A stretch of 64,000 nucleotides of DNA from an uncultured Phycisphaerales bacterium (lineage in GTDB: Bacteria; Planctomycetota; Phycisphaerae; Tepidisphaerales; Tepidisphaeraceae), in contig CAVWLP010000002.1 of the NCBI GenBank assembly GCA_963755915.1, positions 3,648,001 through 3,712,000 of the forward strand, given 5' to 3'. The notes below the pieces were generated by a model. The model made no database searches. It was not told the origin of the DNA and saw only the letters and a program-made list of their open reading frames with translations. The translations under genes and the position numbers were made by a program. Below are positions 49,748 to 61,207 of the stretch, piece by piece; positions within the stretch are counted from its first letter, which is position 1; the number at the start of each line of letters is the position of its first letter.

Positions 49748-50767
49748 ATGGTTACGAGCGGCAGTTCTGCAACGTCTAAACCCCCCTATCAAGGGAAGCC
49801 CGTTGGGTTTACGCTTGTAGAGCTTCTGGTTGTTATTGGAATCATTGCGATTCTTCTCGGCCTGTTGCTGCCCGTTATTGCCAAGGCCCGCGAGCAGGCC
49901 AACCAGGTCAAATGCATGGCCAATTTGCGCACAATTGGACACGCCATAGCGATGTATGCCTCAGACAACGGCGGTTATCTGCCGTTTGGATTTGTACAGG
50001 TCGGAGAGACCATCGGAAATGGCGGCGTCACCTACTCCGATGTCAGCAATCCAACCGGTGACAAGTCAGATTACGTAGACTGGACCATCCTCATCACCCA
50101 CGAGCTTAGCTCAATAGCGGGCACCAGCAGTCTGAACAACCAGACGACCAGCTCCACCAATCCGGGAGTTCGAGGCTATTTCATTTGTCCCACCGCGCCC
50201 GTCTCGACAGTGAACTGCGATTTTTCAGACTACTCCTGTCACCCCAGGCTTATGCCGGATTTGGGAACGCCCGATTACCTGAATCAGGTCCCCGTCAGCA
50301 GGACCAACCCCGGCTATCTCCCTTATCTAAAGCCCTACAAGCTGGCGCAAATACAACGATCGACCGAAATCGCATTGATCTTCGATGCCTCGGTGGCGTC
50401 TCAATACGGGGCCTTTAACGTCGCGTCGGTTGCCTTTGCGATTGATAATGGAAACGTCTACAACACCCATACAACCTGTCTTTCGGATCAATACGGTTCA
50501 ACGTACAACTCCCAGATGATCGATTCCGGCCAGCCGATTGACCCCTACGCCGGGAAAGAGCCGGCAACGCCCGTCCCCAGCGACTTGAACGCCGACACCA
50601 CCGACAACTGGGGAAACATCCGCTTTCGGCATCTCGGAGAAACCGCGGCCAACGCCCTGATGGTCGACGGCCACGTCGAGGTGTTCCATTTCAATCCGCA
50701 TGAGCCCGCGACGAGCATGACCGACCTGTTGCGAAAGAACATCAACGTCAACCTTTCGACCCCGTAA
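49748..50767 (+). CDS. Prepilin-type N-methylation / H-X9-DG (DUF1559-like) protein
   Basis: [49 protein letters not shown]. Confidence 0.9.
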
Positions 50768-51151: not shown

Positions 51152-51226
51152 GCGCCTGTAGCTCAATTGGCAAGCAGCGCCGCGCTTACATCGCGGAGGT
51201 TGCTGGTTCAAGTCCAGCCTGGCGCA
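51152..51226 (+). tRNA. tRNA-Val(TAC)
   Basis: Anticodon arm CCGCG-CT TAC AT-CGCGG; T loop TTCAAGT; one acceptor mismatch. Confidence 0.85.
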
Positions 51227-51271
51227 TGAAAGGACAAAGGCCGTGAAAACGCCTGGAAAATCAGGCCTTTT

Positions 51272-51343
51272 ACGCTGTTAGCTCAGAGGCAGAGCACCCG
51301 CCCGATAAGCGGGAGGCCGGAGAGTCGAGACCTCCACGGCGTA
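51272..51343 (+). tRNA. tRNA-Ile(GAT), degenerate T arm
   Basis: CCCGC-CC GAT AA-GCGGG; T arm reads GGAGAGTCGAGACCTCC. Confidence 0.7.
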
Positions 51344-51354
51344 CTGAAAATCTC

Positions 51355-51429
51355 GCACTGGTAGCTCAATCGGATCAGAGCTCCGGTCTACGAAACCGGA
51401 GGTTGAAGGTTCGAATCCTTCCCAGTGCA
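51355..51429 (+). tRNA. tRNA-Arg(ACG)
   Basis: CCGGT-CT ACG AA-ACCGG; canonical arms. Confidence 0.95.
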
Positions 51430-51488
51430 CTGGTGTCGTAAGTGATTGTATCTAATTACGATGTATTTGTGGTTGCTGATAAGGTTTC

Positions 51489-51560
51489 GCACTCGTAGCT
51501 CAACGGCGGAGCCACCGGCTCTTAACCGGTGGGTTGCAGGTTCGAATCCTGCCGGGTGCA
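51489..51560 (+). tRNA. tRNA-Lys(CTT)
   Basis: ACCGG-CT CTT AA-CCGGT. Confidence 0.93.
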
Positions 51561-51614
51561 TGAAAGGAGAATGTCAGATGAATCGGTTCAGGAGAAAACG
51601 GTGCAAATAATTCC

Positions 51615-51689
51615 GCACCGGTAGCTCAACGGAATCAGAGCAACCCTCTTCTAAAGGGTCGGCTGGGGGTTCGAATCCCTCCCGGTGCA
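51615..51689 (+). tRNA. tRNA-Arg(TCT)
   Basis: ACCCT-CT TCT AA-AGGGT. Confidence 0.93.
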
Positions 51690-51701
51690 TGCGGACAGTG
51701 C

Positions 51702-51773
51702 GCACCGGTAGCTCAATGGCAGAGCCGCCGCCTTTTAAGCGGAACCATGCAGGTTCGATTCCTGCCCGGTGCA
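51702..51773 (+). tRNA. tRNA-Lys(TTT)
   Basis: CCGC-CT TTT AA-GCGG. Confidence 0.9.
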
Positions 51774-51789
51774 TGAAGAGAAAAGTTTC

Positions 51790-51864
51790 GGTTCAGTAGC
51801 CCAACCGGCAGAGGCGCCTGACTCAGAATCAGACTTAGTGCAGGTTCGAATCCTGCCTGGACCA
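51790..51864 (+). tRNA. tRNA-Leu(CAG), short variable loop
   Basis: CTGA-CT CAG AA-TCAG; only about 6 nt before the T arm. Confidence 0.85.
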
Positions 51865-51873
51865 TAGAAAAAA

Positions 51874-52111
51874 GTTGCGGTAGCTCAATCGGATTGGCTC
51901 TGTCTCATGAATCATCGCGCGGCCAGACGAAGTGGATTTCGTCCTCGGGCAAGGAGCGACGACGAGCAGTATTGAACGGAAATACGGCGAGGAGGAGCGA
52001 CGCCGGCCGAGGACGAAAGACACGAGTCGGGCCCGCGAGGATTCATGAGACAGAGCCGAGAGCGCGGCTCTCCGAAGGCCGAGGTTGAAGGTTCGATCCC
52101 TTCCCGCGACG
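51874..52111 (+). tRNA. tRNA-Arg(CCG) with ~164-nt hairpin inserted in the D loop
   Basis: GTTGCGG-TA-GCTC-AATCGGAT [51895-52058] A-GAGC-G-CGGCT-CT CCG AA-GGCCG-AGGTT-GAAGG TTCGATC CCTTC-CCGCGAC-G. Confidence 0.85.
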
Positions 52112-52126
52112 TGAAAGAAAAACATT

Positions 52127-52198
52127 GGGCCCGTCGTCTAACGGGAAGACTCCTGGCCTGCAACCAGGAAATGAGGGTTCGATTCCCTCCGGCGTCCA
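52127..52198 (+). tRNA. tRNA-Ala(TGC)
   Basis: CCTGG-CC TGC AA-CCAGG; G3:U70 present; one bulged C in the acceptor stem. Confidence 0.85.
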
Positions 52199-52205
52199 TC
52201 GGATT

Positions 52206-52279
52206 GCTTCGGTAGCCCAACCGGAAGAGGCGCGTGATCGAGGTTCACGTCAGTGCAGGTTCGAGTCCTGCCCGGAGCA
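52206..52279 (+). tRNA. tRNA-Leu(GAG), short variable loop
   Basis: CGTGA-TC GAG GT-TCACG; variable loop TCAGT. Confidence 0.85.
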
Positions 52280-52292
52280 CTGAAAGCGTTTC

Positions 52293-52366
52293 GCCGCGGT
52301 AGCCCAATGGCAGAGGCGGTGGTCTCAAGAACCGTTTGTGTGTGGGTTCAAATCCCACCCGCGGCA
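52293..52366 (+). tRNA. tRNA-Leu(CAA), short variable loop
   Basis: GTGGT-CT CAA GA-ACCGT; variable loop about 6 nt. Confidence 0.85.
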
Positions 52367-52426
52367 TGAAAGGAGAATCCGATGAGTAGCGGCTCATCAC
52401 AAAAAAATAGCGAAGACTCCGATTGC

Positions 52427-52510
52427 GGAGGGTTGGCCGAACGGTAAGGCATCCGTCTCGAAAACGGACATGGCGCACGCGCCTTGGGGGTTCGAATCCC
52501 TCACCCTCCT
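52427..52510 (+). tRNA. tRNA-Ser(CGA)
   Basis: TCCGT-CT CGA AA-ACGGA; long variable arm. Confidence 0.9.
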
Positions 52511-52563
52511 TCCGACTCGCGCAGAGCGCTCGGCCTGCCGTGAGCGAGCGCAGCGAGTCGAAC

Positions 52564-52652
52564 GGAGGGTTGGCAGAGTGGCCTAACGCGCCGGGTTGCT
52601 AACTCGGAAGGCTTTGAAAAGGGCCTCGAAGGTTCGAATCCTTCACCCTCCG
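52564..52652 (+). tRNA. tRNA-Ser(GCT)
   Basis: CCGGG-TT GCT AA-CTCGG; long variable arm. Confidence 0.92.
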
Positions 52653-52719
52653 CTGGATTTTGGGCGGTACGAAAATGGTTCGTCCCGCGAAGTGTTCTTT
52701 GACAATCAGGTGGCGTATT

Positions 52720-52792
52720 GCCGTCATAGCTCAGCGGAATGAGCGTCCGGTTGTCAACCGGAAGGCCATGGGTTCAACCCCCATTGACGGCG
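52720..52792 (+). tRNA. tRNA-Asp(GTC)
   Basis: TCCGG-TT GTC AA-CCGGA. Confidence 0.88.
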
Positions 52793-52797
52793 TTTTT

Positions 52798-52868
52798 GTG
52801 GATTCAGCTCCAAGGTAGAGCGGGGGCCTGAAGAGCCCCAGGGCTTGGTTCGATTCCAGGAGTCCACA
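52798..52868 (+). tRNA. tRNA-Phe(GAA)
   Basis: GGGGC-CT GAA GA-GCCCC. Confidence 0.88.
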
Positions 52869-52878
52869 TTGAAGCGAT

Positions 52879-52949
52879 GCGTCGGTAGTTCAGCGGTCGA
52901 ACACCGCTATGCCAATGCGGAGGCCCGGGTTCTATTCCCGGCCGGCGCA
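52879..52949 (+). tRNA. tRNA-Gly(GCC)
   Basis: CCGC-TAT GCC AAT-GCGG; T loop TTCTATT. Confidence 0.8.
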
Positions 52950-52962
52950 CTGAGATTGACGA

Positions 52963-53034
52963 GCAGTGATAACTCAGCCGGGAGAGTGCCGGTCTTCCAA
53001 ACCGGAGACGTGGGTTCGAATCCCGCTCACTGCA
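52963..53034 (+). tRNA. tRNA-Gly(TCC)
   Basis: CCGGT-CT TCC AA-ACCGG. Confidence 0.9.
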
Positions 53035-53049
53035 TAATGCGAGTTTGAT

Positions 53050-53122
53050 GCCGTGGTAGCTCAAAGGGTAGAGCGGTCGTCTCGTAAACGACAGATCGCC
53101 GGTTCGATCCCGGCCCGCGGCT
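53050..53122 (+). tRNA. tRNA-Thr(CGT)
   Basis: GTCGT-CT CGT AA-ACGAC. Confidence 0.93.
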
Positions 53123-53136
53123 CTTAGGGATATTCT

Positions 53137-53210
53137 GGGTGCGTAGCTCAATGGCGGAGCAGGGGCCTCATAAGCCCAAGGTTGTTGGTTCGAATCCAAC
53201 CGTTCACCCA
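53137..53210 (+). tRNA. tRNA-Met or Ile2 (CAT)
   Basis: GGGC-CT CAT AA-GCCC; two extra nt in the acceptor 3' strand. Confidence 0.8.
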
Positions 53211-53227
53211 TTTTTAGAAACTTTTAT

Positions 53228-53300
53228 ACAGGGATAGTTCAATCGGTAGAACGCTCGGCTCTGAACCGGGTTGCTGGAGGTTCGAATCCTTCTCCCTGAA
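53228..53300 (+). tRNA. tRNA-Gln(CTG)
   Basis: CTCGG-CT CTG AA-CCGGG; unpaired 1:72. Confidence 0.88.
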
Positions 53301-53301
53301 C

Positions 53302-53374
53302 TGAGCCGTAGTTCAATCGGTAGCAATGCCGGTCTTTGAATCCGGCGATCGTGGTTCGAATCCACGCGGCTCAA
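53302..53374 (+). tRNA. tRNA-Gln(TTG)
   Basis: CCGG-TCT TTG AAT-CCGG; U1:A72. Confidence 0.85.
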
Positions 53375-53384
53375 ATACCTTAAT

Positions 53385-53458
53385 ACCTTCGTGGTGGAAT
53401 TGGTACCACACTCGGTTGTTACCCGATGAGATTGCAGGTTCGAATCCTGCCGAAGGTG
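53385..53458 (+). tRNA. tRNA-Asn(GTT)
   Basis: TCGG-TT GTT AC-CCGA; G73. Confidence 0.85.
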
Positions 53459-53460
53459 TT

Positions 53461-53570
53461 AGCGGAGCGAGACGCTCCGCTAGAAGGTAGAAAGTAGAGA
53501 GTAGAAAGTAGACTGAAATCCCGTCTTCCCTACTTTGTACTTTCTACTCTCAACTTTCTCGCGCAGCGCC
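53461..53570. repeat. Palindromic intergenic element with AGTAGA-type repeats
   Basis: AGCGGAGCG-AGA-CGCTCCGCT, then purine-rich arm 53482-53511 complementary to pyrimidine arm 53530-53559; right end matches 28270-28289 in reverse complement. Confidence 0.6.
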
Positions 53571-53642
53571 GCTCTCGTCGTCTAATGGTCAGGATAACCG
53601 GCCTTCAACCGGAGAGTGTGGGTTCGATTCCCTCCGGGAGCA
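53571..53642 (+). tRNA. tRNA-Glu(TTC)
   Basis: CCGG-CC TTC AA-CCGG; D arm GTCT AATGGTC AGGAT. Confidence 0.82.
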
Positions 53643-53656
53643 CTGCAAGTTCAATT

Positions 53657-53730
53657 CAGCGTGTGGCGAAGCTTGGCATCGCGCGTGCCTCGGGCGCACG
53701 AGATCGAAGGTTCGAATCCTTCCACGCTGA
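53657..53730 (+). tRNA. tRNA-Pro(CGG)
   Basis: CGTGC-CT CGG GC-GCACG; C1:G72, A73. Confidence 0.93.
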
Positions 53731-53740
53731 CTGTTTTAGC

Positions 53741-53825
53741 GCGTAGGTCGCATAACTGGCATTGCAGCGGGCTGTAACCCCGCCGACCCAACGGGTTTTT
53801 GGGGGTTCAAATCCCTCCCTACGCA
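53741..53825 (+). tRNA. tRNA-Tyr(GTA)
   Basis: GCGGG-CT GTA AC-CCCGC; long variable arm. Confidence 0.92.
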
Positions 53826-53846
53826 TTGCGGCCAGAGGCCGCGAAC

Positions 53847-53919
53847 GCGCCGGCTGTTCCAGCGGTGGAACGCCCGCCTCCAAATCGGGAAACGGCAGGT
53901 TCGATCCCTGCCCGGCGCT
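53847..53919 (+). tRNA. tRNA-Trp(CCA)
   Basis: CCCG-CCT CCA AAT-CGGG; atypical positions 8-9 and discriminator. Confidence 0.78.
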
Positions 53920-53929
53920 GAAACTTTTT

Positions 53930-54001
53930 GAGGATGTGGCCGAATGGCAAGGCGCGGGTCTGCAAAGCCTGCTGATGCTGGTTCGAATCCAGTCATCCTC
54001 T
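53930..54001 (+). tRNA. tRNA-Cys(GCA)
   Basis: CGGGT-CT GCA AA-GCCTG; U73. Confidence 0.9.
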
Positions 54002-54003
54002 TT

Positions 54004-54078
54004 GTGGCCGTAGCTCAACTGGATCAGAGCACCGGGATGTGGCCCCGGTCGTTGTGAGTTCAAATCTCACCGGTCACC
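54004..54078 (+). tRNA. tRNA-His(GTG), no encoded G-1
   Basis: CCGGG-AT GTG GC-CCCGG; C73; T at position -1. Confidence 0.9.
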
Positions 54079-54124
54079 CTGAAAAAATACGCCCCCTGTT
54101 GTCGGTTTGTGAAAGGAGTTTGAG

Positions 54125-54385
54125 ATGACGCGTGCAACGCAATTTGACGTTTTGCCGGCCGATGTCGGCGCCGCAAGCGTTGCGGTGATTCACGTTCGGT
54201 TTGCCGGACAAAGCTTTGACGTTCCGCTGGCGAGCCTGGATGTCGGCGTCCAAAGCGCTGACGGCGCCATCAGGGCAGCCGTGGCCAACTGGCTGAGAGT
54301 GTCGCCGGCCCGTCTGGAGGCCTATGTGATCGACCGCCATGCCAACGGCAATCTGACGATTCGTCCCGAAGCGGTTTTCGGATGA
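54125..54385 (+). CDS. Small Gly-terminated protein, candidate ubiquitin/ThiS-like modifier
   Basis: AAGGAG RBS; 86 aa; strand-strand-helix-strand pattern (VIHVRFAGQSFDVPL...IRAAVANWL...NLTIRPEAVFG-stop); ThiF gene in the same unit. Confidence 0.7.
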   Translation: MTRATQFDVLPADVGAASVAVIHVRFAGQSFDVPLASLDVGVQSADGAIRAAVANWLRVSPARLEAYVIDRHANGNLTIRPEAVFG

Positions 54386-54397
54386 ATCGTGTTGCCG

Positions 54398-54564
54398 TGC
54401 CGCGGCCGGGACGCCGGGATCGCACCCAACGCCAGAAGCTTACAAACAAGGTTGGCACGGCGGGCAACCGCTGTGCCAGGGGTGCGAATCCCCCCAGAGG
54501 TCCTGGTTAGGACCGCAACAGATGCTTTTGTGACTCGTGCGATCGCGGCGTCCCGGCCGCGGCA
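54398..54564 (+). ncRNA. Y-RNA-like ncRNA unit 1
   Basis: Long closing stem TGCCGCGGCCGGGACGCCG..GATCGCAC / GTGCGATC..CGGCGTCCCGGCCGCGGCA; CCAACG-N4-AAGC-TTACAAAC ... GCTT-TTGTGACTC; T-arm-like GGGG TGCGAAT CCCC. Confidence 0.75.
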
Positions 54565-54589
54565 AAATTCAGGAGTTTTATGGATCGAG

Positions 54590-54772
54590 ATCGGCCGCCT
54601 GCGAATTGCGGCCCGCGCCCAACGATTGGAGCATACAAACTGGTTGCTTGTGGGGATCATTTTCCCGCAATGAAGGTTCGAATCCTTCCACCCCGTCTTT
54701 GAAGAACTGTGCGGGGTGCGAAAATATTTGCTCCCGCAACTTGCGCGAACCGCAATTCGCCGGCGATCCGAT
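54590..54772 (+). ncRNA. Y-RNA-like ncRNA unit 2
   Basis: Stem GCGAATTGCGG / CCGCAATTCGC; CCAACG-N4-GAGC-ATACAAAC ... GCTC-CCGCAACTT; T arm GAAGG TTCGAAT CCTTC followed by closed acceptor-like stem CACCCCG/CGGGGTG. Confidence 0.78.
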
Positions 54773-54805
54773 TGGAACTTAATCACGGAGACGCCGCCAA
54801 AACAT

Positions 54806-54969
54806 TCTGCAGTACACGCCGTACCCAACGGCGCGAGCATACAAACGTTGCTAACGTAGAGGTTACGGGTTCGAGTCCCGTCAGGCCAGCTTTCAATCAT
54901 TCGGGCCTGTAGCTCAATGGTAGAGCGCTAAAAAGTGGCTCATGCGACTTGTATGGCGTGTTCTGCGGA
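54806..54969 (+). ncRNA. Y-RNA-like (YrlA-architecture) ncRNA unit 3
   Basis: Closing stem and shared motif; T arm ACGGG TTCGAGT CCCGT, closed acceptor CAGGCC..GGCCTG, TA, D arm GCTC AATGGTA GAGC (T arm before D arm). Confidence 0.85.
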
Positions 54970-54987
54970 TTTTATGAAAGGAAGAGA

Positions 54988-55163
54988 TCGATTCGCCGAT
55001 GCCGCGCCTGCACCCAACGGCAGGAGCATACAAACTTGCGGGTTCGAATCCCGCCATTTGCGAATGCAAATGACGTCCATTTGGAAGGACACCTGACTCA
55101 CAATCAGGCGTTTAACAACGCACAGCTCGTGTGACTTGTGCGGGCGCGGCGCCGGTGAATCGA
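54988..55163 (+). ncRNA. Y-RNA-like ncRNA unit 4 containing a complete permuted cloverleaf (anticodon-like CAC)
   Basis: Closing stem and shared motif; T arm GCGGG TTCGAAT CCCGC, acceptor CATTTGC-GAAT-GCAAATG, D arm GTCC ATTTGGAA GGAC, anticodon arm CCTGA-CT CAC AA-TCAGG. Confidence 0.85.
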
Positions 55164-55185
55164 CTTGACGGAAAGGAGCAGCACC

Positions 55186-56835
55186 ATGACGAACATGAAC
55201 GCACACCTCACGACCGAACAGGACGCACGTCTCCGGCTGCTGAACACGCTGCTGACGACGCCGCACCGCAAGCTCCAGAAAGTTCACCCGGTGCATGAAG
55301 AAATCGCGGCCAACGATCCGCGCTTCTACGTGCGCCTCGCTTCCTGGTACTTCGACCACGGCGACGTTCGCGACCACAAGGAAATGTTCGTGGTTTCGCT
55401 GGTTTTGAGCGATTTCGAAGGACACCGCGACGTTGGATTGGCCCTGCTGCGCCAGCTCCCGCCGTACGAAGTGGGGCGGGTGCTGGACTTCATCAACGGC
55501 CGCAAGACAACCCGTAAGGTGATCGTGCGCACTCGCAAGGCGCGCAAGGACCGCGCGGCTGCGAAGGCTCAGCCGGGCCTGATCAATCGAATCGCGCGCC
55601 TGGTGACGGGAAACGCCGCGGAATCGGCGGAAGCCGGGCCGACCGAAGCAGCGCCGGCGCCGGAAATCAAGCTGGTGACGGAAACCTTCGGGCTCTTCCG
55701 CAACCCGCCGCGCTCGCTACGGACGGAAATCGTCCGCTACCTGCGTGAACGCGAAGCCGACGGCGAATGGTTCGACAGCACCGTGCTCGTTGCCCGCAAG
55801 GCGATCAAGCGGCTGTACGCGCTGAACCACGTGAAGCCGGGTGATCGCGCCCAGCGGATCCTCTTCGACGAAGATCCGCCGGCCGGCAGCCGGATTTACG
55901 CTTTGCGCAAGCTCGCCGCCGCAACCACGCCGGCGGAGCAGGCGCAGGCGATTATCGACAACGCGATTCCGTATCGAGTCGCCCAGTCGGTCGTCAAGCA
56001 GATGACGCCGACGATTCTGCTGGCCCTGATCGAGCGGATGAGCCCTCAGGAACTGATTAACAACGTCGCCTCGCTGACGAAGCGCGGCGCGATGGACAAT
56101 CCGGACCTGAAGGCGTTGATCGACCAGAAGCTTGAGCAGGCCCAAACGGCCCAGCGGGTTAGCGGGCTCAAGGCGCAGAAGGCGATTGAGTCGGCCGGCG
56201 CAACGGTGTCGCCGGACGTGAAGGCGAAGCTCGAAAGCGTCGCCGACGCGCAGATCAAGGCTAAGGGCCGGATCGACCGTCCCACGGCGCTGCTCATCGA
56301 CAAGTCGGGCTCGATGTCGCTGGCGATTGAACTCGGCAAGCGCATCGGCGCCCTGATTTCCGCGATCTGCCGCGCGGAGCTCTTCGTCTACGCGTTCGAC
56401 ACGATGGCTTACCCCATCGAGCGCGGCGGCGACGACCTTGCTTCGTGGGAAAAGGCGCTGGTTGGCATCAAGGCCGGCGGCGGAACGAGCTGCGGAGTCG
56501 CCGTCGAGGCGATGCGCATCCGCAAGCAGTACGTCGAGCAGATCATTCTCGTCACCGACGAGGGTGAAAACACGGCGCCGCTGTTTGTGCCCACGCTGCA
56601 GAAGTACCGGGAAACGGTCAAGGCCGTTCCCAACATCTGCATCGTTCGCGTCCCGCGCAGCGTGACGACGGTTGAGTCGAATTGCCGCGCGGCTGGTTTG
56701 ATGGTCGATGTGTTCCAGTTCGCCGGCGACTACTACTCGCTGCCGAACCTGGCGCCGCTCCTGAGCAAGCCGAGCAAGCTCGAATTGCTCATGGAGATCC
56801 TGGAGTACCCTCTGCCGAAGCGGAGGTCGGCGTAA
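55186..56835 (+). CDS. Ro60/TROVE-like helical protein with C-terminal vWA domain
   Basis: AAAGGAG RBS; basic helical N-terminal region (DPRFYVRLASWY, MSPQELINNVASL); MIDAS residues LLIDKSGSM, GGTS, ILVTDEGEN; adjacent to Y-like RNAs. Confidence 0.75.
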   Translation: MTNMNAHLTTEQDARLRLLNTLLTTPHRKLQKVHPVHEEIAANDPRFYVRLASWYFDHGDVRDHKEMFVVSLVLSDFEGHRDVGLALLRQLPPYEVGRVLDFINGRKTTRKVIVRTRKARKDRAAAKAQPGLINRIARLVTGNAAESAEAGPTEAAPAPEIKLVTETFGLFRNPPRSLRTEIVRYLREREADGEWFDSTVLVARKAIKRLYALNHVKPGDRAQRILFDEDPPAGSRIYALRKLAAATTPAEQAQAIIDNAIPYRVAQSVVKQMTPTILLALIERMSPQELINNVASLTKRGAMDNPDLKALIDQKLEQAQTAQRVSGLKAQKAIESAGATVSPDVKAKLESVADAQIKAKGRIDRPTALLIDKSGSMSLAIELGKRIGALISAICRAELFVYAFDTMAYPIERGGDDLASWEKALVGIKAGGGTSCGVAVEAMRIRKQYVEQIILVTDEGENTAPLFVPTLQKYRETVKAVPNICIVRVPRSVTTVESNCRAAGLMVDVFQFAGDYYSLPNLAPLLSKPSKLELLMEILEYPLPKRRSA

Positions 56836-56838
56836 TTC

Positions 56839-56871
56839 AGCGGCGCGGCTCAAAAAGCCCGCGCCGCTTTT
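56839..56871 (+). terminator. Intrinsic-terminator-like hairpin
   Basis: AGCGGCGCGGCT-CAAAA-AGCCCGCGCCGCT-TTT right after the vWA stop; U tract is short. Confidence 0.5.
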
Positions 56872-56884
56872 GGAAGGTCGTTAT

Positions 56885-57586
56885 ATGCGCTCGGACATGG
56901 CCAAAGTAATCGTGGAACGGCCCCGCAGAGGCGGCGGAATCCGTTATCCGCGCAGTCACCCGGATTCCCATCGATTGGACATCGAGGATTTCCGCAGTCG
57001 CCAGGGCATGCGCCGGCCGTGGCTCAGTTCCCACGCAAAGGGATTGAATGAAAACCTCGCGCCCCTGGAGCGCTATCTGCGAACCCACGTGGGCCGCCCG
57101 TGGGATGACATTTACAGCGAGATTTGCGAGCACATGAATCGCAATTCCGCCGTTCAACTGCACATCTGGCAGCACCTAATGCAATTTGTCTGCAGAGATG
57201 TTTATGTCACGCTCGGTTTGGTCAAGCCGTCATGGTGGCACGGCGCGGGAAGGTTTTATGTCGACCCGAGCACGGGAATATTGCGCGAAAATCTGTTCAG
57301 GTGGCGCTACCGGCGGCCCGAACCGAAGCCCGATCCAAACCGCGTTCCAGCGAGCGAGGATATCGAATATCGGCGAATTGAGGGCATCTGGTATGAATTG
57401 CGCTTGGCGCCGATTCCGAAGTTTCGCATCGGCTACGACTTCGCGATCAGAAAACATCTGACCGAAATCAGCGACGATCTCCTTCACAAGTTTTACGACC
57501 GACAGGTTTACGCCGCGAGGAAACGCCAATTGAACAAGAAAGAAATCAGAAAACTTGGACTGACAACGGCAGGGACAAAATCTTGA
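56885..57586 (+). CDS. Arg/aromatic-rich hypothetical protein
   Basis: MRSDMAKVIVERPR...LNENLAPLERYL..VGRPWDDIYSEIC...FYVDPSTGIL...KRQLNKKE; overlaps the next start codon. Confidence 0.7.
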   Translation: MRSDMAKVIVERPRRGGGIRYPRSHPDSHRLDIEDFRSRQGMRRPWLSSHAKGLNENLAPLERYLRTHVGRPWDDIYSEICEHMNRNSAVQLHIWQHLMQFVCRDVYVTLGLVKPSWWHGAGRFYVDPSTGILRENLFRWRYRRPEPKPDPNRVPASEDIEYRRIEGIWYELRLAPIPKFRIGYDFAIRKHLTEISDDLLHKFYDRQVYAARKRQLNKKEIRKLGLTTAGTKS

Positions 57587-58440
57587 AAAAGGAACTTCTT
57601 CAAACTCTTAAGAATCTTGCTGCCGCGGAGAATGCGTTCGTCGACATCGAATTCCTCGCCCCGGTCCTGCGCGGCTCCGGCGTCGCGGTAAAAATTGCCG
57701 GGGTCCGCTGCAACGTCGCGATTGATCCGCCCGATTTCCAGGGCTGGGGTGTCTTTCGCGCCGATTCCCTGACGAGCGCCGCTTTGCTTCGCGAAGCGAC
57801 CCCCACGCAGCGGCGAAACTATCTGCGTCTGCTTCCCTCGGTCCGCCTAATCGTTTGTGGCGGAAAGGCGAGCACTGCGATGGCCCTTCCCGCCAATCCC
57901 TCGGACACGCGCTTCTATTTTGCGGGACCGGTCTTTGTGCAGCTTTGCCCGAAAATCGATTTGTTCACGACGATAATGTGCCGGTTCTATGCCGCTCAAT
58001 TTTGGTTCGACAGTCTGGATTCGCGCACTGATCCCGCCGCCGCAGCGTACTTGCGGCGTGAACTGACGAACATGACCGAACCGAAAAATCTTTCCCGTAG
58101 GGGCGTAACCCGTGGCGAGCGATTCGCCTACGCCTTTGAATTTTCGCGCCGCGCCAGCGCAATTCTCGCCGACCGGCGGCATCGCGCCGACGTCCGCCTA
58201 AAGCAGGCGCTGGCCCATGCCGGCGCCATCCTGACCGATTTTTCCGAAGACCACGATTTGTTTCGCGTCGCTTATTTGGTCGACGGCCGCCGTCATCTGA
58301 GCAACGTGCGCAAGGACGATCTCACAGTTCAATCCGCCGGCATTTGCCTCGCCGGCCAGGACCGGAATTTCGATCTCGCGAGCCTGGTAGGAGTCCTTCG
58401 CGAGGGCGATTCCATGTCCAGATTTCCCCGCCGGCGGTAA
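57583..58440 (+). CDS. Hypothetical protein with C-terminal GICL motif (candidate divergent E2/UBC-like)
   Basis: DLTVQSAGICLAGQDRNFDLASLVGVLRE immediately upstream of the ThiF gene. Confidence 0.6.
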   Translation: MKKELLQTLKNLAAAENAFVDIEFLAPVLRGSGVAVKIAGVRCNVAIDPPDFQGWGVFRADSLTSAALLREATPTQRRNYLRLLPSVRLIVCGGKASTAMALPANPSDTRFYFAGPVFVQLCPKIDLFTTIMCRFYAAQFWFDSLDSRTDPAAAAYLRRELTNMTEPKNLSRRGVTRGERFAYAFEFSRRASAILADRRHRADVRLKQALAHAGAILTDFSEDHDLFRVAYLVDGRRHLSNVRKDDLTVQSAGICLAGQDRNFDLASLVGVLREGDSMSRFPRRR

Positions 58441-58460: not shown

Positions 58461-59114
58461 ATGCCCGGAGCCTTCCATCACGAATCCCTCTACCGCGGCC
58501 CCGAAGCGCTTGCGCGGCTGGCGTCGCTGCGCATCACCCTCTGCGGCGCCGGCGCGATCGGTTCGAACCTGGCCGACAACCTCGTCCGCCAGGGCGCGGC
58601 GAAACTGCGCGTCATCGACGACGACCGCGTCGAGCAGCACAACATTTCCACGCAAATCTACGGCGAATCAGATGTAGGCGTCTGGAAGGTCGAAGCCTTG
58701 CGGAACCATCTTTTCCGCGCCTGCGGCATCGAAATTGACGCCGTGCGGAAAAGACTCACCGCGCAAAACGCCGGATCGCTTCTGAAAGATGCCGATCTGG
58801 TTATCGATGCGCTCGACAATTCGCAGTCGCGCCAGATCGTGCAAGACCATGCGCGAGCAACCAATGTCCCGTGCATTCACATCGGCCTGTACGAAGACTA
58901 CTGCGAATCGATTTGGGACGAGCAATACCGCGTGCCCGCGGATCGTGCGAATCAGCATGACGTTTGCGATTATCCGCTGGCCCGGAACCTGGTACTGCTC
59001 GCTGTCGCGATTGCGTCAGAAACGATCGTGAAATGGCCCGCCACCGGCGAGCGTGCGAATCTCTCCGCGACGCTCAAAGATTTTGCGGTCAGGCCCCTGG
59101 TGCAGCGGGTTTGA
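58461..59114 (+). CDS. ThiF/MoeB/E1-family adenylyltransferase
   Basis: LCGAGAIGS, IDDDRVEQHNISTQ, KVEAL, VIDALDN; no CxxC zinc pairs; lone Cys in DVCDYP. Confidence 0.9.
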   Translation: MPGAFHHESLYRGPEALARLASLRITLCGAGAIGSNLADNLVRQGAAKLRVIDDDRVEQHNISTQIYGESDVGVWKVEALRNHLFRACGIEIDAVRKRLTAQNAGSLLKDADLVIDALDNSQSRQIVQDHARATNVPCIHIGLYEDYCESIWDEQYRVPADRANQHDVCDYPLARNLVLLAVAIASETIVKWPATGERANLSATLKDFAVRPLVQRV

Positions 59115-59123
59115 AACTGCTGA

Positions 59124-61207
59124 TCACTTCCCCGCCAATTGCGCAACCGCAGCGATAAGCTGCTGCGGCTCCACAGGCTTCGTGAGGTGCATCTGAAATC
59201 CCGCAGTGAGCGCGAATCCGGTCCTCCTCGCGCATAAGCAGTCAGCGCGATCGCCGGCGTATTCCCTCCGCTGGCGGCCGGAAGCTGCCGAAGCATCTGG
59301 ATCATCTGAAATCCATCTTCTCCCGGCATTGCGATATCGCTCACCAGCACGTGCGGCATGCATTTCCCCATGCATTCCATCGCTTCGCGAACCGAACTCG
59401 CCGCCGTGACCATCGCCTCCGCACGCGACAGAATTTCGCGAACCAGCTCGAGCGCATCGGGCTCATCATCGATAACGAGAACCTTCTTTCCCGATAGCTT
59501 GATGCCATTGACGGTATGAGGGGCATTGTTTTTCGGTGCGACGGCCGGCACGGAAGGCGCTTTGTGAAATGGCGACGTCGGCAGTGTCACGGTAAATGTG
59601 GCCCCACTTCCCAGCCCCGAACTGTGCGCCGCCACGCTTCCGCCATGCAGCTCGACGATATGCCGCACGATCGTCAGCCCGATGCCAAGCCCCCCGTGCG
59701 ATCGGGTCATCGTATTGTCCGCCTGGCGAAACCGGTCGAACACAAACGGCAGAAACGCGCCGTCAATTCCCTGCCCCGTATCCGCGATCTGAATCTGCGC
59801 GTGATGATTCACGGACTCGAGGCTCACGTGCACCTGCCCCTGCGGCGGCGTAAACTTCACCGCGTTCGCCAGCAGGTTCCACACCACCTGCTGGAGCCGG
59901 TCAGGGTCGCCGGAAATCTTCGCGCTTGCGCCCAATTCCACTTCCAGTTGGATATTCTTCGCGTCGGCCGCGGGCCGGATCGCGTCAACCGCCGACTGAA
60001 CGATCAGCTCCAGCGGCACATCCGCCATTTGCAGCCGCATCTTCCCCGAGCTGACGCGCGAAACGTCCAGCAAATCCTCAATCAATTTCGTCTGCGCCTT
60101 CACGTTCCGCTCGATGACGTCCAGGCCATGCGCGGCGTCATCAGGCAGTTTCTCGGTGCGCAAAATCTGAGTCCACCCGACGATCGCATTCAGCGGCGTC
60201 CGCAATTCGTGCGACAACGTCGCCAGAAATTCGTCCTTAATGCGATTGGCTTCGCGCTCTTGCGCAAAAATAATGTTCTGAATCGCGATCGAGGTGATCT
60301 GGGCAAGCTGCACAAGGATCGCCTCATCGTCGCTGGAAAACGAGTCCTTGCCGCGGTCCATCAGCAGAATCAGGCCGAGATTCTTGCCGTCGCGACCGCT
60401 CAGCGGCGCCGCCAGCAGCCCGCCCCGCGTCGTCGGCAGCTCCAGCTTGCGAATTATCTCCCAGTCCGGATGCTCGCGCAGCTCCGATTCGCTGAGCCGT
60501 ATCGCGATCGGCGATTGTGCGATGATCGTACCGGCCACGGGCTCAAGCTTGATCGGCCGGTTGCGCCACTGCGAGAAACGGTCCGAAAATGCCGCCGCCG
60601 CGCGGATCGGAGACGGCCGGTGCGTTTGCAATGGATCGGCCAGTATCAGCGAGCCGCAGAAATGGCTCCCGATCAGTTCCCGCGCATAGTCGGTAACCGC
60701 CCGGATCATCTGCTCCACCGACGGTGCGCTGTTAATGGCGATCGACGCGGTCGAGAGCATCTGAAGCTGCCCCGCTCGCCGGCGCAATGCTTCGCTCTGC
60801 CGCCGGGTTTGCGCCGTCATCTGGTAAAGCGAAACGAAAACCCCCACCTTGCTTCGCAAAACTTCCGGCGCAAACGGCGCGGTGAGGTAGTCGACCGCGC
60901 CGAGGCTGTATCCCTTGGCCACCAGCGGGTCATCCCCGAACGCCGTGATAAAGATGATCGGAATGTGCTGCGAGCTTGGGCGTTGCCGAATCAGCTCCGC
61001 GGTTTCAAACCCATCCATCCCCGGCATGTTCACGTCGAGAAGGATGACCGCAAAGTCTTCGTTGAGCAGGCATCGCAGCGCATCACGCCCGGTGTAGGCC
61101 CGAACGATCCGCTGGTCCAGGTCCTGTAGAACCGCTTCCAGCGCCAGGAGATTCTCAGGCTTGTCATCCACGATCAGGATGTTCGCCGGTGCGCCCGCTT
61201 CAGTCAT
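59124..61207 (-). CDS. Hybrid kinase REC-GAF-HisKA-HATPase-REC (frameshift near 59228)
   Basis: [41 protein letters not shown]-terminal AGFQMHLTKPV in a second frame. Confidence 0.9.

Follow-up and report, generated by a model that had tools for sequence, protein, structure and literature searches.

Within a 64,000-nucleotide (nt) stretch of DNA from an uncultured Phycisphaerales bacterium, hereafter the window, within which all coordinates are counted, four tandem predicted RNA units stand directly upstream of a gene for a Ro60/Rsr-like protein. They belong to a cassette made up of an accessory tRNA array, a candidate ubiquitin-like open reading frame (ORF) ending in Gly, the RNA units, which we interpret below as Y RNAs, the Ro60-like gene, a gene for a protein with a predicted OB-fold and an invariant Cys, and a ThiF-type E1 (Table 1). 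Ro60 and its Y RNAs form a conserved RNA quality-control particle that is also a human autoantigen; to our knowledge, work on bacterial Y RNAs has so far concerned a single RNA-binding motif (GNCGAA) and proteins bearing the Pfam TROVE signature.

Table 1 Features of the cassette and its flanks in the window. Locus counts for cassette genes are from tblastn over 59 related loci.
Feature	Coordinates	Strand	Details
DUF1559 / N-terminal-methylation protein	49748–50767		
tRNA array	51152–54079	+	26 tRNA genes by ARAGORN; Rfam adds 51272–51343 (27)
Small ORF	54125–54385	+	86 amino acids (aa), conserved core ~70 aa; 39/59 loci; ends ...RPEAVFG-stop
Unit 1	54398–54565	+	168 nt; CCAACG 54426, AAGC 54436, UACAAAC 54441, GCUU 54524, GUGACUC 54530; terminal stem ~27 base pairs (bp)
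Unit 2	54583–54773	+	191 nt; CCAACG 54619, GAGC 54629, UACAAAC 54634, GCUC 54730, GCAACUU 54736; long terminal stem
Unit 3	54806–54969	+	164 nt; CCAACG 54825, UACAAAC 54840, GCUC 54938, GCGACUU 54944
Unit 4	54988–55163	+	176 nt; CCAACG 55014, UACAAAC 55029, GCUC 55125, GUGACUU 55131
Ro60/Rsr-like protein	55186–56835	+	549 aa; predicted helical-repeat ring, then vWA domain with DxSGS MIDAS (metal-ion-dependent adhesion site) motif
238-aa ORF (p238)	56870–57586	+	between Ro60-like gene and p285; 2/59 loci; no Pfam match
p285	57583–58440	+	285 aa; 40/59 loci; OB-fold-like barrel at residues ~84–152; invariant Cys in GICL.G.D motif
ThiF/MoeB-type E1 adenylation domain	58461–59114	+	217 aa; Pfam ThiF E 1.4e-30; 35/59 loci
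Hybrid histidine kinase	58970–61207	−	receiver-domain matches (two), GAF domain; runs towards cassette end

Four tandem units share a signature and a fold

Each unit contains a 22-nt signature, CCAACG-N4-RAGC-N-TACAAAC, with a 3′ partner, GCTY-NN-GYRACTY, lying 98–113 nt past it. The signature occurs four times in the window, always on the + strand, against a chance expectation of 0.00 in 100 dinucleotide-preserving shuffles with one mismatch allowed, and a search of the whole genome (6.6 Mb) returned only the same four sites (4 forward, 0 reverse). All four units fold stably, with minimum free energies of −113.5, −87.3, −70.0 and −91.9 kcal/mol for units 1–4, and their 34-nt flanks form 27, 26, 20 and 29 pairs, respectively; the sequence of this terminal stem differs from unit to unit, and the internal loop, CCAACG / GYRACUY, is constant. 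These results bear out a preliminary description of this DNA, which had proposed four tandem units with a shared motif and compensatory pairing: AAGC/GCTT alternates with GAGC/GCTC, and the stem tops read GCAC/GTGC, GCGC/GCGC and GTAC/GTAT. The unit size given there, 164–183 nt, holds for units 1, 3 and 4; unit 2 is longer.

The units are closely packed, with 12 nt between the small-ORF stop and unit 1, ~18–32 nt between units, and 7 nt from the end of unit 4 to the Shine-Dalgarno sequence of the Ro60-like gene (23 nt to its ATG at 55186). None of the six ORFs that overlap them, on both strands, had a Pfam match at E ≤ 0.001. A promoter and terminator scan returned 2 and 9 sites, not above shuffles; on the + strand, the gaps separating the elements held neither a sigma-70-like promoter nor a terminator, planctomycete promoters being outside the scope of the scan. 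This tight spacing suggests one processed precursor, and the units are probably excised from a single transcript that would also bear the tRNA array, the small ORF and the Ro60-like gene.

The units are conserved and covary across related loci

We collected 59 related loci, in addition to the window, from Tepidisphaerales, Phycisphaerales, Gemmatales, Isosphaeraceae, Pirellulales and Planctomycetaceae, along with one Thermoflexales record. The strict RNA motif was found upstream of the gene and on its strand in 34 of the 59 loci, and on the opposite strand in none. From 54 distinct units in which both motifs are present (alignment A2) we built a covariance model, R1 (160 positions, 20 pairs). 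Searched against the window and the 59 loci, R1 gave 212 matches at E ≤ 0.01, all on the + strand, the partial ones being tRNA genes, and 144 matches at E ≤ 1e-6 (L045 left out as a duplicate of L042), which we aligned as A4. The window's own units scored 73.6 (E 4.4e-15), 75.7, 128.4 and 85.1 bits, in order. Upstream flanks of 400 nt or more were available for 54 loci, window included (L014, L030, L037, L041 and L051 dropped for short flanks, and L045), of which 50 have an R1 unit upstream of the Ro60-like gene, in 1–6 copies: 11 loci with one copy, 13 with two, 15 with three, seven with four, three with five and one with six, and four with none. Across loci, the median distance separating the last unit from the start of the gene is some 100 nt. 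A covariance model searched near homologous genes had been suggested in the preliminary description; the one made here finds its 144 copies beside such genes, with covariation.

In A2, 89.5% of cells in paired columns can pair, compared with 75.9% in shuffled alignments, and 16 of 24 pairs changed on both sides, counts to be read knowing that the seed was picked by regular expression, which fixed several of its columns. The covariation score was 0.461 relative to 0.200 shuffled, with 0 of 500 shuffles reaching it, and controls in which the structure was slid scored 0.081–0.165; since the aligned sequences are related to each other, such shuffle counts are not probabilities. For A4, which was fitted to the R1 structure so that its pair counts lean towards that structure, 93.7% of cells paired (78.8% shuffled), 18 of 20 pairs changed on both sides, and the score was 0.476 (0.195 shuffled; slid controls 0.058–0.143). 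Individual A2 pairs illustrate the exchanges: the second pair from the stem top is UA in 36 rows, CG in 17 and other in 1; the third is AU in 43, GC in 9, UA in 1 and other in 1; at the R:Y position of RAGC/GCUY, 21 rows have GC, 18 AU and 15 GU, with none unpaired; and a T-stem pair is CG in 23, UA in 16, GC in 4 and AU in 3. The 90 matches outside the seed keep CC.A.C ... AGC.UACA.AC ... GCU ... ACU in 72–90 of 90 rows per position, giving the signature CC-R-A-C-S ... RAGC-N-UACAAAC ... GCUY ... R-ACU-Y-G.

By fold and alignment, each unit consists of two parts. The first, which we call the closure, comprises paired ends, an asymmetric loop (5′ CCAACG, 3′ RACUY), a short variable helix, the RAGC/GCUY helix and a single-stranded UACAAAC; the second is a tRNA-mimicking body that differs among the four units. 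A 3-bp helix leading from the loop to RAGC (columns 19–21 / 236–238) is partly supported, its outer pairs being unpaired in 12 and 19 of the 54 rows. A pairing of AAAC with GUUU was considered for one class of units, that with a D arm, and not adopted: GUUU occurs in many Pirellulales and Isosphaerales rows, and is absent from unit 3 and from further rows that have a run of A there.

A pairing of UACAA with a 3′ UUGUA was considered and ruled out on the reading of A2, because UACAAAC is invariant while the 3′ GUAC changes to GUGC, GCGC and GCAC along with the 5′ stem.

R1 also matched downstream of the gene (13 matches in 12 loci). We folded 13 short matches, mostly from this side, which measure about 80–145 nt; most keep the closure (CCGACC or CCAACC, GAACUU), and all but one are without a tRNA-like body. 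RNAs of ~100 nt just downstream of the Ro60-like gene, for example in L012 (4546–4649), L025 (4573–4677), L043 (4577–4678) and L010 (4568–4685), recall YrlB. There is none in the window, where the 238-aa ORF occupies that place.

Unit bodies resemble tRNA parts and follow an accessory tRNA array

A T-arm-like hairpin, a feature absent from the preliminary description, is present in all four units. In unit 1 the body has a long hairpin, the T-arm-like hairpin (GGGG UGCGAAU CCCC, 54479–54493) and a further hairpin, and in unit 2 a hairpin, a T arm (GAAGG UUCGAAU CCUUC, 54672–54688) and a long closed stem, both without a D arm. Unit 3 shows the classical order of YrlA, the tRNA-like bacterial Y RNA: a small hairpin, a T arm (54865–54881), a closed acceptor-like stem and a D arm (UAGCUCAAUGGUAGAGCG). 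Among homologues, acceptor-like stems 7 bp long occur. In unit 4 a T arm (55038–55054), a closed acceptor-like stem, a D-like arm and an anticodon-like arm of 5 bp and 7 nt (CCUGA CUCACAA UCAGG) are joined by one extra hairpin; the unit amounts to a complete tRNA in permuted form. The class of unit 4 recurs in L011, L032 and L035, where, on our reading of the alignment, loop positions U2 and A6 are kept and the stem changes are compensatory.

Every anticodon of the array that ends just before the small ORF is repeated among the 57 tRNAs that the genome encodes outside it (83 in total), and array members share 54–79% identity with the same-anticodon copies elsewhere; this duplication and divergence mark the array as an accessory set. 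CCA is not encoded in 25 of its 26 tRNAs. Of 20 loci tested, 9 have an array of 4–17 tRNAs ahead of the cassette, the remaining 11 having fewer than four upstream tRNAs. In L010, L011, L022, L032 and L035 the gene order at the array's end largely repeats that of the window, closing with Trp-Cys-His in the window and the first four of these and with Cys-His in L035.

Since the units directly follow this array and contain T- and D-arm sequences, they might be decayed or rearranged tRNA genes at its end, without a function of their own. We consider this extremely improbable. ARAGORN calls no tRNA in 54080–55400; the most conserved part of the units is the closure, which is not tRNA-like and covaries; homologous loci show no free decay; and the units are kept where the array is not, in the 11 of 20 loci with fewer than four upstream tRNAs.

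The downstream gene encodes a divergent Ro60-like protein

The 549-aa protein encoded directly after the units has no match to Pfam TROVE (PF05731) at E ≤ 10 and belongs to no Pfam or NCBIfam family; nor did a six-frame search of the genome, whose completeness is estimated at 81%, return a TROVE match. Amongst Protein Data Bank (PDB) sequences, phmmer gave a sole match, the Ro60 of Thermus phage phiLo (E 0.006), with the alignment running across the vWA MIDAS motif (DxSGS). We built an AlphaFold2 model from 20 homologues (predicted local distance difference test, pLDDT, 69) and compared it with the PDB using Foldseek: ranks 1–12 are human, Xenopus, Deinococcus and phiLo Ro60/Rsr structures (E 6.7e-11 to 4.2e-8) with about 520–560 aligned columns, the top 11 being matched along the whole model, and isolated vWA domains rank below. 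Two homologues score 27.1 and 28.7 bits on PF25045 vWA_Ro60 (cut-off 27.7). On the strength of the Foldseek ranks, the MIDAS alignment to phiLo Ro60 and the homologues' vWA_Ro60 scores, the model identifies the protein as a Ro60-type ring-plus-vWA protein at ~12–15% identity to solved ones. What had been noted as a downstream vWA protein thus has a Ro60-type fold by Foldseek and is invisible to Pfam TROVE.

This protein has many relatives. A metagenome search found at least 2761 at E ≤ 0.001 (8000 candidates scored), and in a collection of species genomes at least 669 stretches encode one (669 of 671 among the matches listed). Wherever the source gives a name, it is 'hypothetical protein'.

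The units resemble YrlA and carry a different closure

Genes for bacterial Y RNAs lie no more than 4 kb from rsr and share its strand, there are two or more per species, their products carry T and D arms, and Chen et al. 2014 proposed GNCGAAN0-1G near the 5′ end as the Rsr contact (PMC4201824, here and below as described in the available text). The units lie 23 nt from a gene that is Ro60-like by fold, on the same strand and in more than one copy; units 3 and 4 have the T arm, closed acceptor-like stem and D arm in YrlA order, and units 1 and 2 have the T arm with a closed stem after it and lack the D arm. The units share three of the four defining features of YrlA. Further likenesses are the terminal stem with its internal loop, the N-U-A-C at the start of the body, which parallels YUAY at the start of the V-loop (PMC4201824), and A-C-U-U-G before the 3′ stem strand, in the Rfam consensus and the units alike. 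The units differ from YrlA in having CCAACG in place of the 5′ GNCGAAN0-1G, an invariant ACAAAC, no D arm in units 1 and 2, an additional anticodon-like arm in unit 4, scores below the Rfam cut-off, and a protein partner whose clade escapes Pfam TROVE.

Rfam searches agree with this mixture of likeness and difference. YrlA (RF02553) matches unit 3 over the full model (54838–54958, positions 1–114, 50.7 bits, E 3.7e-10) and the T, acceptor and D part of unit 4 (24.6 bits), and does not match units 1 and 2 at E ≤ 10. The metazoan Y_RNA family, RF00019, is absent from the 14 Rfam matches at E ≤ 10 in 54080–55250. The preliminary description had envisaged a divergent Y-RNA family recognised by the downstream vWA protein, with a loop that, its GACU-like 3′ strand aside, is unlike the metazoan GGUCCGA/UUGACU bulged helix. 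The present evidence supports that reading, with two amendments, the first concerning known models and the second, taken up below, recognition by the protein. The contrast with the metazoan helix is upheld, the closure is equally unlike the GNCGAA motif, and no family was matched at gathering score; the units are, however, not wholly outside known models, given the sub-threshold YrlA matches to units 3 and 4, and their effector modules are tRNA mimics of the sort by which YrlA is defined.

Other Ro60 partners offer a similar comparison. Metazoan Y RNAs share with the units paired termini, a conserved interrupted helix for Ro60, a variable effector part and a partner of Ro60 fold; the units lack the GGUCCGA/UUGACU helix (motif from PMC4201824), and the metazoan RNAs lack a tRNA-like body. 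In Deinococcus radiodurans (Yrn1/Yrn2) and phage phiLo (Yrl1/Yrl2), as here, the Ro60 gene is preceded by several Y RNAs (PMC4201824; PMC12135203), and phiLo Ro60 binds its two upstream Yrl RNAs (PMC12135203). The Deinococcus Yrn2-tRNA-Yrn1 and the Mycobacterium smegmatis YrlA-YrlB are each processed from one precursor (PMC4201824), so that Deinococcus has a Y RNA co-transcribed with a tRNA just as the window's units follow a tRNA array. phiLo provides a phage-borne Ro60/Y RNA pair, and its Ro60 is the nearest solved relative of the window's protein in sequence (E 0.006). The Y RNAs of Deinococcus and phiLo, by contrast, use a CGAA-type motif, and the available text of the two papers describes no Ubl (ubiquitin-like), E1 or p285 genes alongside (PMC4201824; PMC12135203).

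We next to this compared loci with classical TROVE genes, which occur in 9 of 151 sampled genomes of the phylum. Beside these genes Rfam YrlA reaches its cut-off in four loci (70.9–78.9 bits), with further copies at 42–67.5 bits, and R1 scores 22–40 bits, mostly at tRNA-like positions, as opposed to 73.6–128.4 bits for the window units. At E ≤ 1e-6 R1 matched two of the 151 genomes, a figure that is no census, as 19 of about 300–2100 candidates were scored per genome. Conversely, GNCGAAN0-1G stands 5′ of ACAAAC in 3 of the 144 model matches. Closure type follows protein clade: TROVE loci carry YrlA, do not have the present closure and score low with R1, and the window units lack GNCGAA. Such tracking is expected if the closure is the protein's docking site, and it constitutes the strongest indirect argument for binding. 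Synteny and this match of RNA type to protein clade together suggest that the 549-aa protein recognises the units.

One of the two genomes matched by R1, that of another planctomycete (locus L067, G137:C11), carries a classical YrlA-type RNA without the CCAACG closure at 1480–1635, directly upstream of RtcB-RtcA and following a HEPN AbiU2-like gene; no Ro60 gene lies within the 8 kb read.

We conclude that the units are, with high probability, Y RNAs of the YrlA kind that are bound by the Ro60-like protein. The evidence supports their having a different protein-binding module from that of YrlA, matched to the divergent Ro60 clade; the units would be expressed and bound in the cell. Several observations weigh against this interpretation. 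No unit reaches any Rfam gathering score, the YrlA cut-off of 69 bits included, and GNCGAAN0-1G, the 5′ motif by which known bacterial Y RNAs are defined, is found in 0 of 4 units; for these two reasons we set the units apart from RF02553. Four loci (L006, L029, L056, L068) have no R1 match even with filters off and encode the homologous protein (53–57% identity class), and L019 has none at E ≤ 1e-6. The protein model is moderately confident (pLDDT as above, template-modelling score 0.35–0.47), such that the ring geometry itself is uncertain. The fixed columns of A2 and the structural lean of A4 count here as well, as does a second candidate RNA binder in the cassette, the OB-like barrel of p285, to which we return below.

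A different possibility is that the units work in cis, within a long operon transcript, serving as processing or stability signals or as operators by which the Ro60-like protein would regulate its own synthesis, and not free RNAs acting in trans. The tight gaps, the + strand free of sigma-70-like promoters and terminators between the elements, and the short median distance from last unit to gene would all fit such a role, but the scan is blind to planctomycete promoters, and known Y RNAs that come from polycistronic precursors still act in trans (PMC4201824). An operator, moreover, would not need tRNA-like bodies with T and D arms, copy number ranges from 1 to 6, body classes are conserved across orders, and the 13 downstream matches show that units with the same closure occur on the other side of the gene in 12 loci. 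We therefore regard a purely cis-acting role as very unlikely and retain the interpretation of the units as Y RNAs.

The cassette also encodes a candidate ubiquitin-like/E1 pair

The small ORF is matched by no Pfam or NCBIfam model, and 38 of its 39 orthologues end in FG. We modelled residues 18–86 together with two copies of the E1 and obtained an interaction prediction score from aligned errors (ipSAE) of 0.87, compared with 0.00 for the best control; the mark used is reached by 116 of 157 solved complexes and by 2 of 215 mismatched pairs. Separate runs agree in at least 88% of contacts, with partner pLDDT of at least 91, and in the model the tail (residues 80–86) touches E1 residues 29 and 31–34, the GxGxxG nucleotide loop. 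The pair resembles the solved ThiF-ThiS and MoeB-MoaD complexes, so the pass may reflect this likeness. The modelling suggests that the small ORF encodes a ubiquitin-like or sulfur-carrier-like partner of the E1. Like ThiS-ThiF and MoaD-MoeB, the pair joins a small protein with a C-terminal Gly to a ThiF-family adenylation domain; it differs from them in being linked to a Ro60-like gene, Y RNAs and tRNA arrays, and not to thiamine or molybdopterin genes.

The p285 model is confident (pLDDT 88), and its fold matches are weak, to OB-fold RNA binders of the S17, S1 and cold-shock types; the best Foldseek E value is 9.8e-4 and VIA Z is at most 7.2 over residues 84–152, a range also reached by unrelated models. 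Look-ups in a protein atlas placed p285 and the small ORF in unnamed clusters only. With PADLOC, the E1 alone was matched, to E1-E2 models, and the Ro60-like protein, the small ORF, p238 and p285 gave no match at E ≤ 0.01. The 238-aa ORF falls outside the conserved cassette. Our literature search yielded no paper on planctomycete Ro60, this lineage, or TROVE/Ro60 with ThiF or Ubl; the cassette may nonetheless have been described before.

These proteins suggest another way to read the locus, in which the closure is recognised by a different cassette protein, p285, or in which the RNAs and array tRNAs are substrates of a Ubl/E1 sulfur-carrier modification pathway, after the pattern of TtuB/TtuC or Urm1/Uba4. 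The co-occurrence of p285 and E1 with the units (40 and 35 of the 59 related loci, 6 and 4 of the 8 from phages), the OB-like barrel already counted against recognition by the Ro60-like protein, and the Ubl tail modelled in the E1 nucleotide loop, with the reservation given above about likeness to solved complexes, all speak for it. The p285 fold matches, however, stay within the range of unrelated models, no PP-loop or rhodanese domain was found in the cassette proteins, and the RNAs adjoin the Ro60-like gene and not p285; the rule that Y RNAs lie beside Ro60 suffices without extra assumptions. We thus consider this reading unlikely.

A DUF1559 / N-terminal-methylation gene lies on one side of the cassette and a hybrid histidine kinase gene converges on its other end, and from these flanks the cassette appears as an island of ~8 kb between ordinary planctomycete genes.

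Huge phages carry the cassette

The Ro60-like protein is also encoded, at 52% identity, on a 595-kb record labelled 'uncultured phage' (L076, LR756511.1), and on seven IMG/VR contigs of 37–390 kb (L069–L075). Across these eight phage loci, tblastn found the Ro60-like gene in all eight, the small ORF and p285 in 6 each and the E1 in 4. The 32 R1 matches at E ≤ 0.001 are without exception on the + strand. Nine tRNAs called by ARAGORN lie inside phage R1 matches; each is an unpermuted complete tRNA body, the 5′ strand of whose acceptor begins in ACAAAC, and NCCA is encoded after the 3′ strand in four of the nine. At one extreme, the RNAs beside the divergent Ro60 genes are T-arm stubs; others are permuted tRNAs, and at the other extreme whole tRNAs are embedded, with CCA encoded. 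The units mark out a conserved branch of bacterial Y RNAs that had not been modelled before and that huge phages carry too.

Discussion

By analogy with known Ro60 particles, the closure would most likely dock on the outer face of the Ro60-like ring, and the tRNA-like bodies would then either tether the protein to partners that recognise tRNA or gate its cavity. In Deinococcus, Salmonella and Thermus phage phiLo, Y RNAs act in this way for Rsr and PNPase (available text of PMC4201824 and PMC12135203). Carrying different bodies on the same closure would lend one protein several specificities.

A broader proposal, which we offer tentatively and hold to be possible without being probable, is that the locus represents a mobile, tRNA-centred cassette of Planctomycetota and huge phages, in which the Y RNAs would be accompanied by a complete accessory tRNA set, a ubiquitin-like protein and its E1, the OB-fold Cys protein and the deeply divergent Ro60. 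A Ro60-like ring would dock on the helix formed by leader and trailer, and would chaperone, guard or triage tRNAs or decoys in a phage–host conflict over the tRNA pool, with the Ubl/E1 pair marking or modifying the particle or its RNA. If true, this would be the first link between a Ro60 ribonucleoprotein and a ubiquitin-like system in prokaryotes.

The locus reveals a large second lineage of predicted Ro60 proteins, missed by Pfam TROVE and by the Rfam gathering cut-off. As its closure motif differs from that of the known bacterial Y RNAs, it provides a natural experiment on how Ro60 rings read RNA, and the presence of several tRNA-like bodies on one docking module, together with whole tRNAs in phage, makes the purpose of tRNA mimicry directly testable. 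The Ubl/E1 pair and the accessory tRNA arrays, found on huge phages as well, point to an unexplored role for these particles in tRNA-centred conflict.

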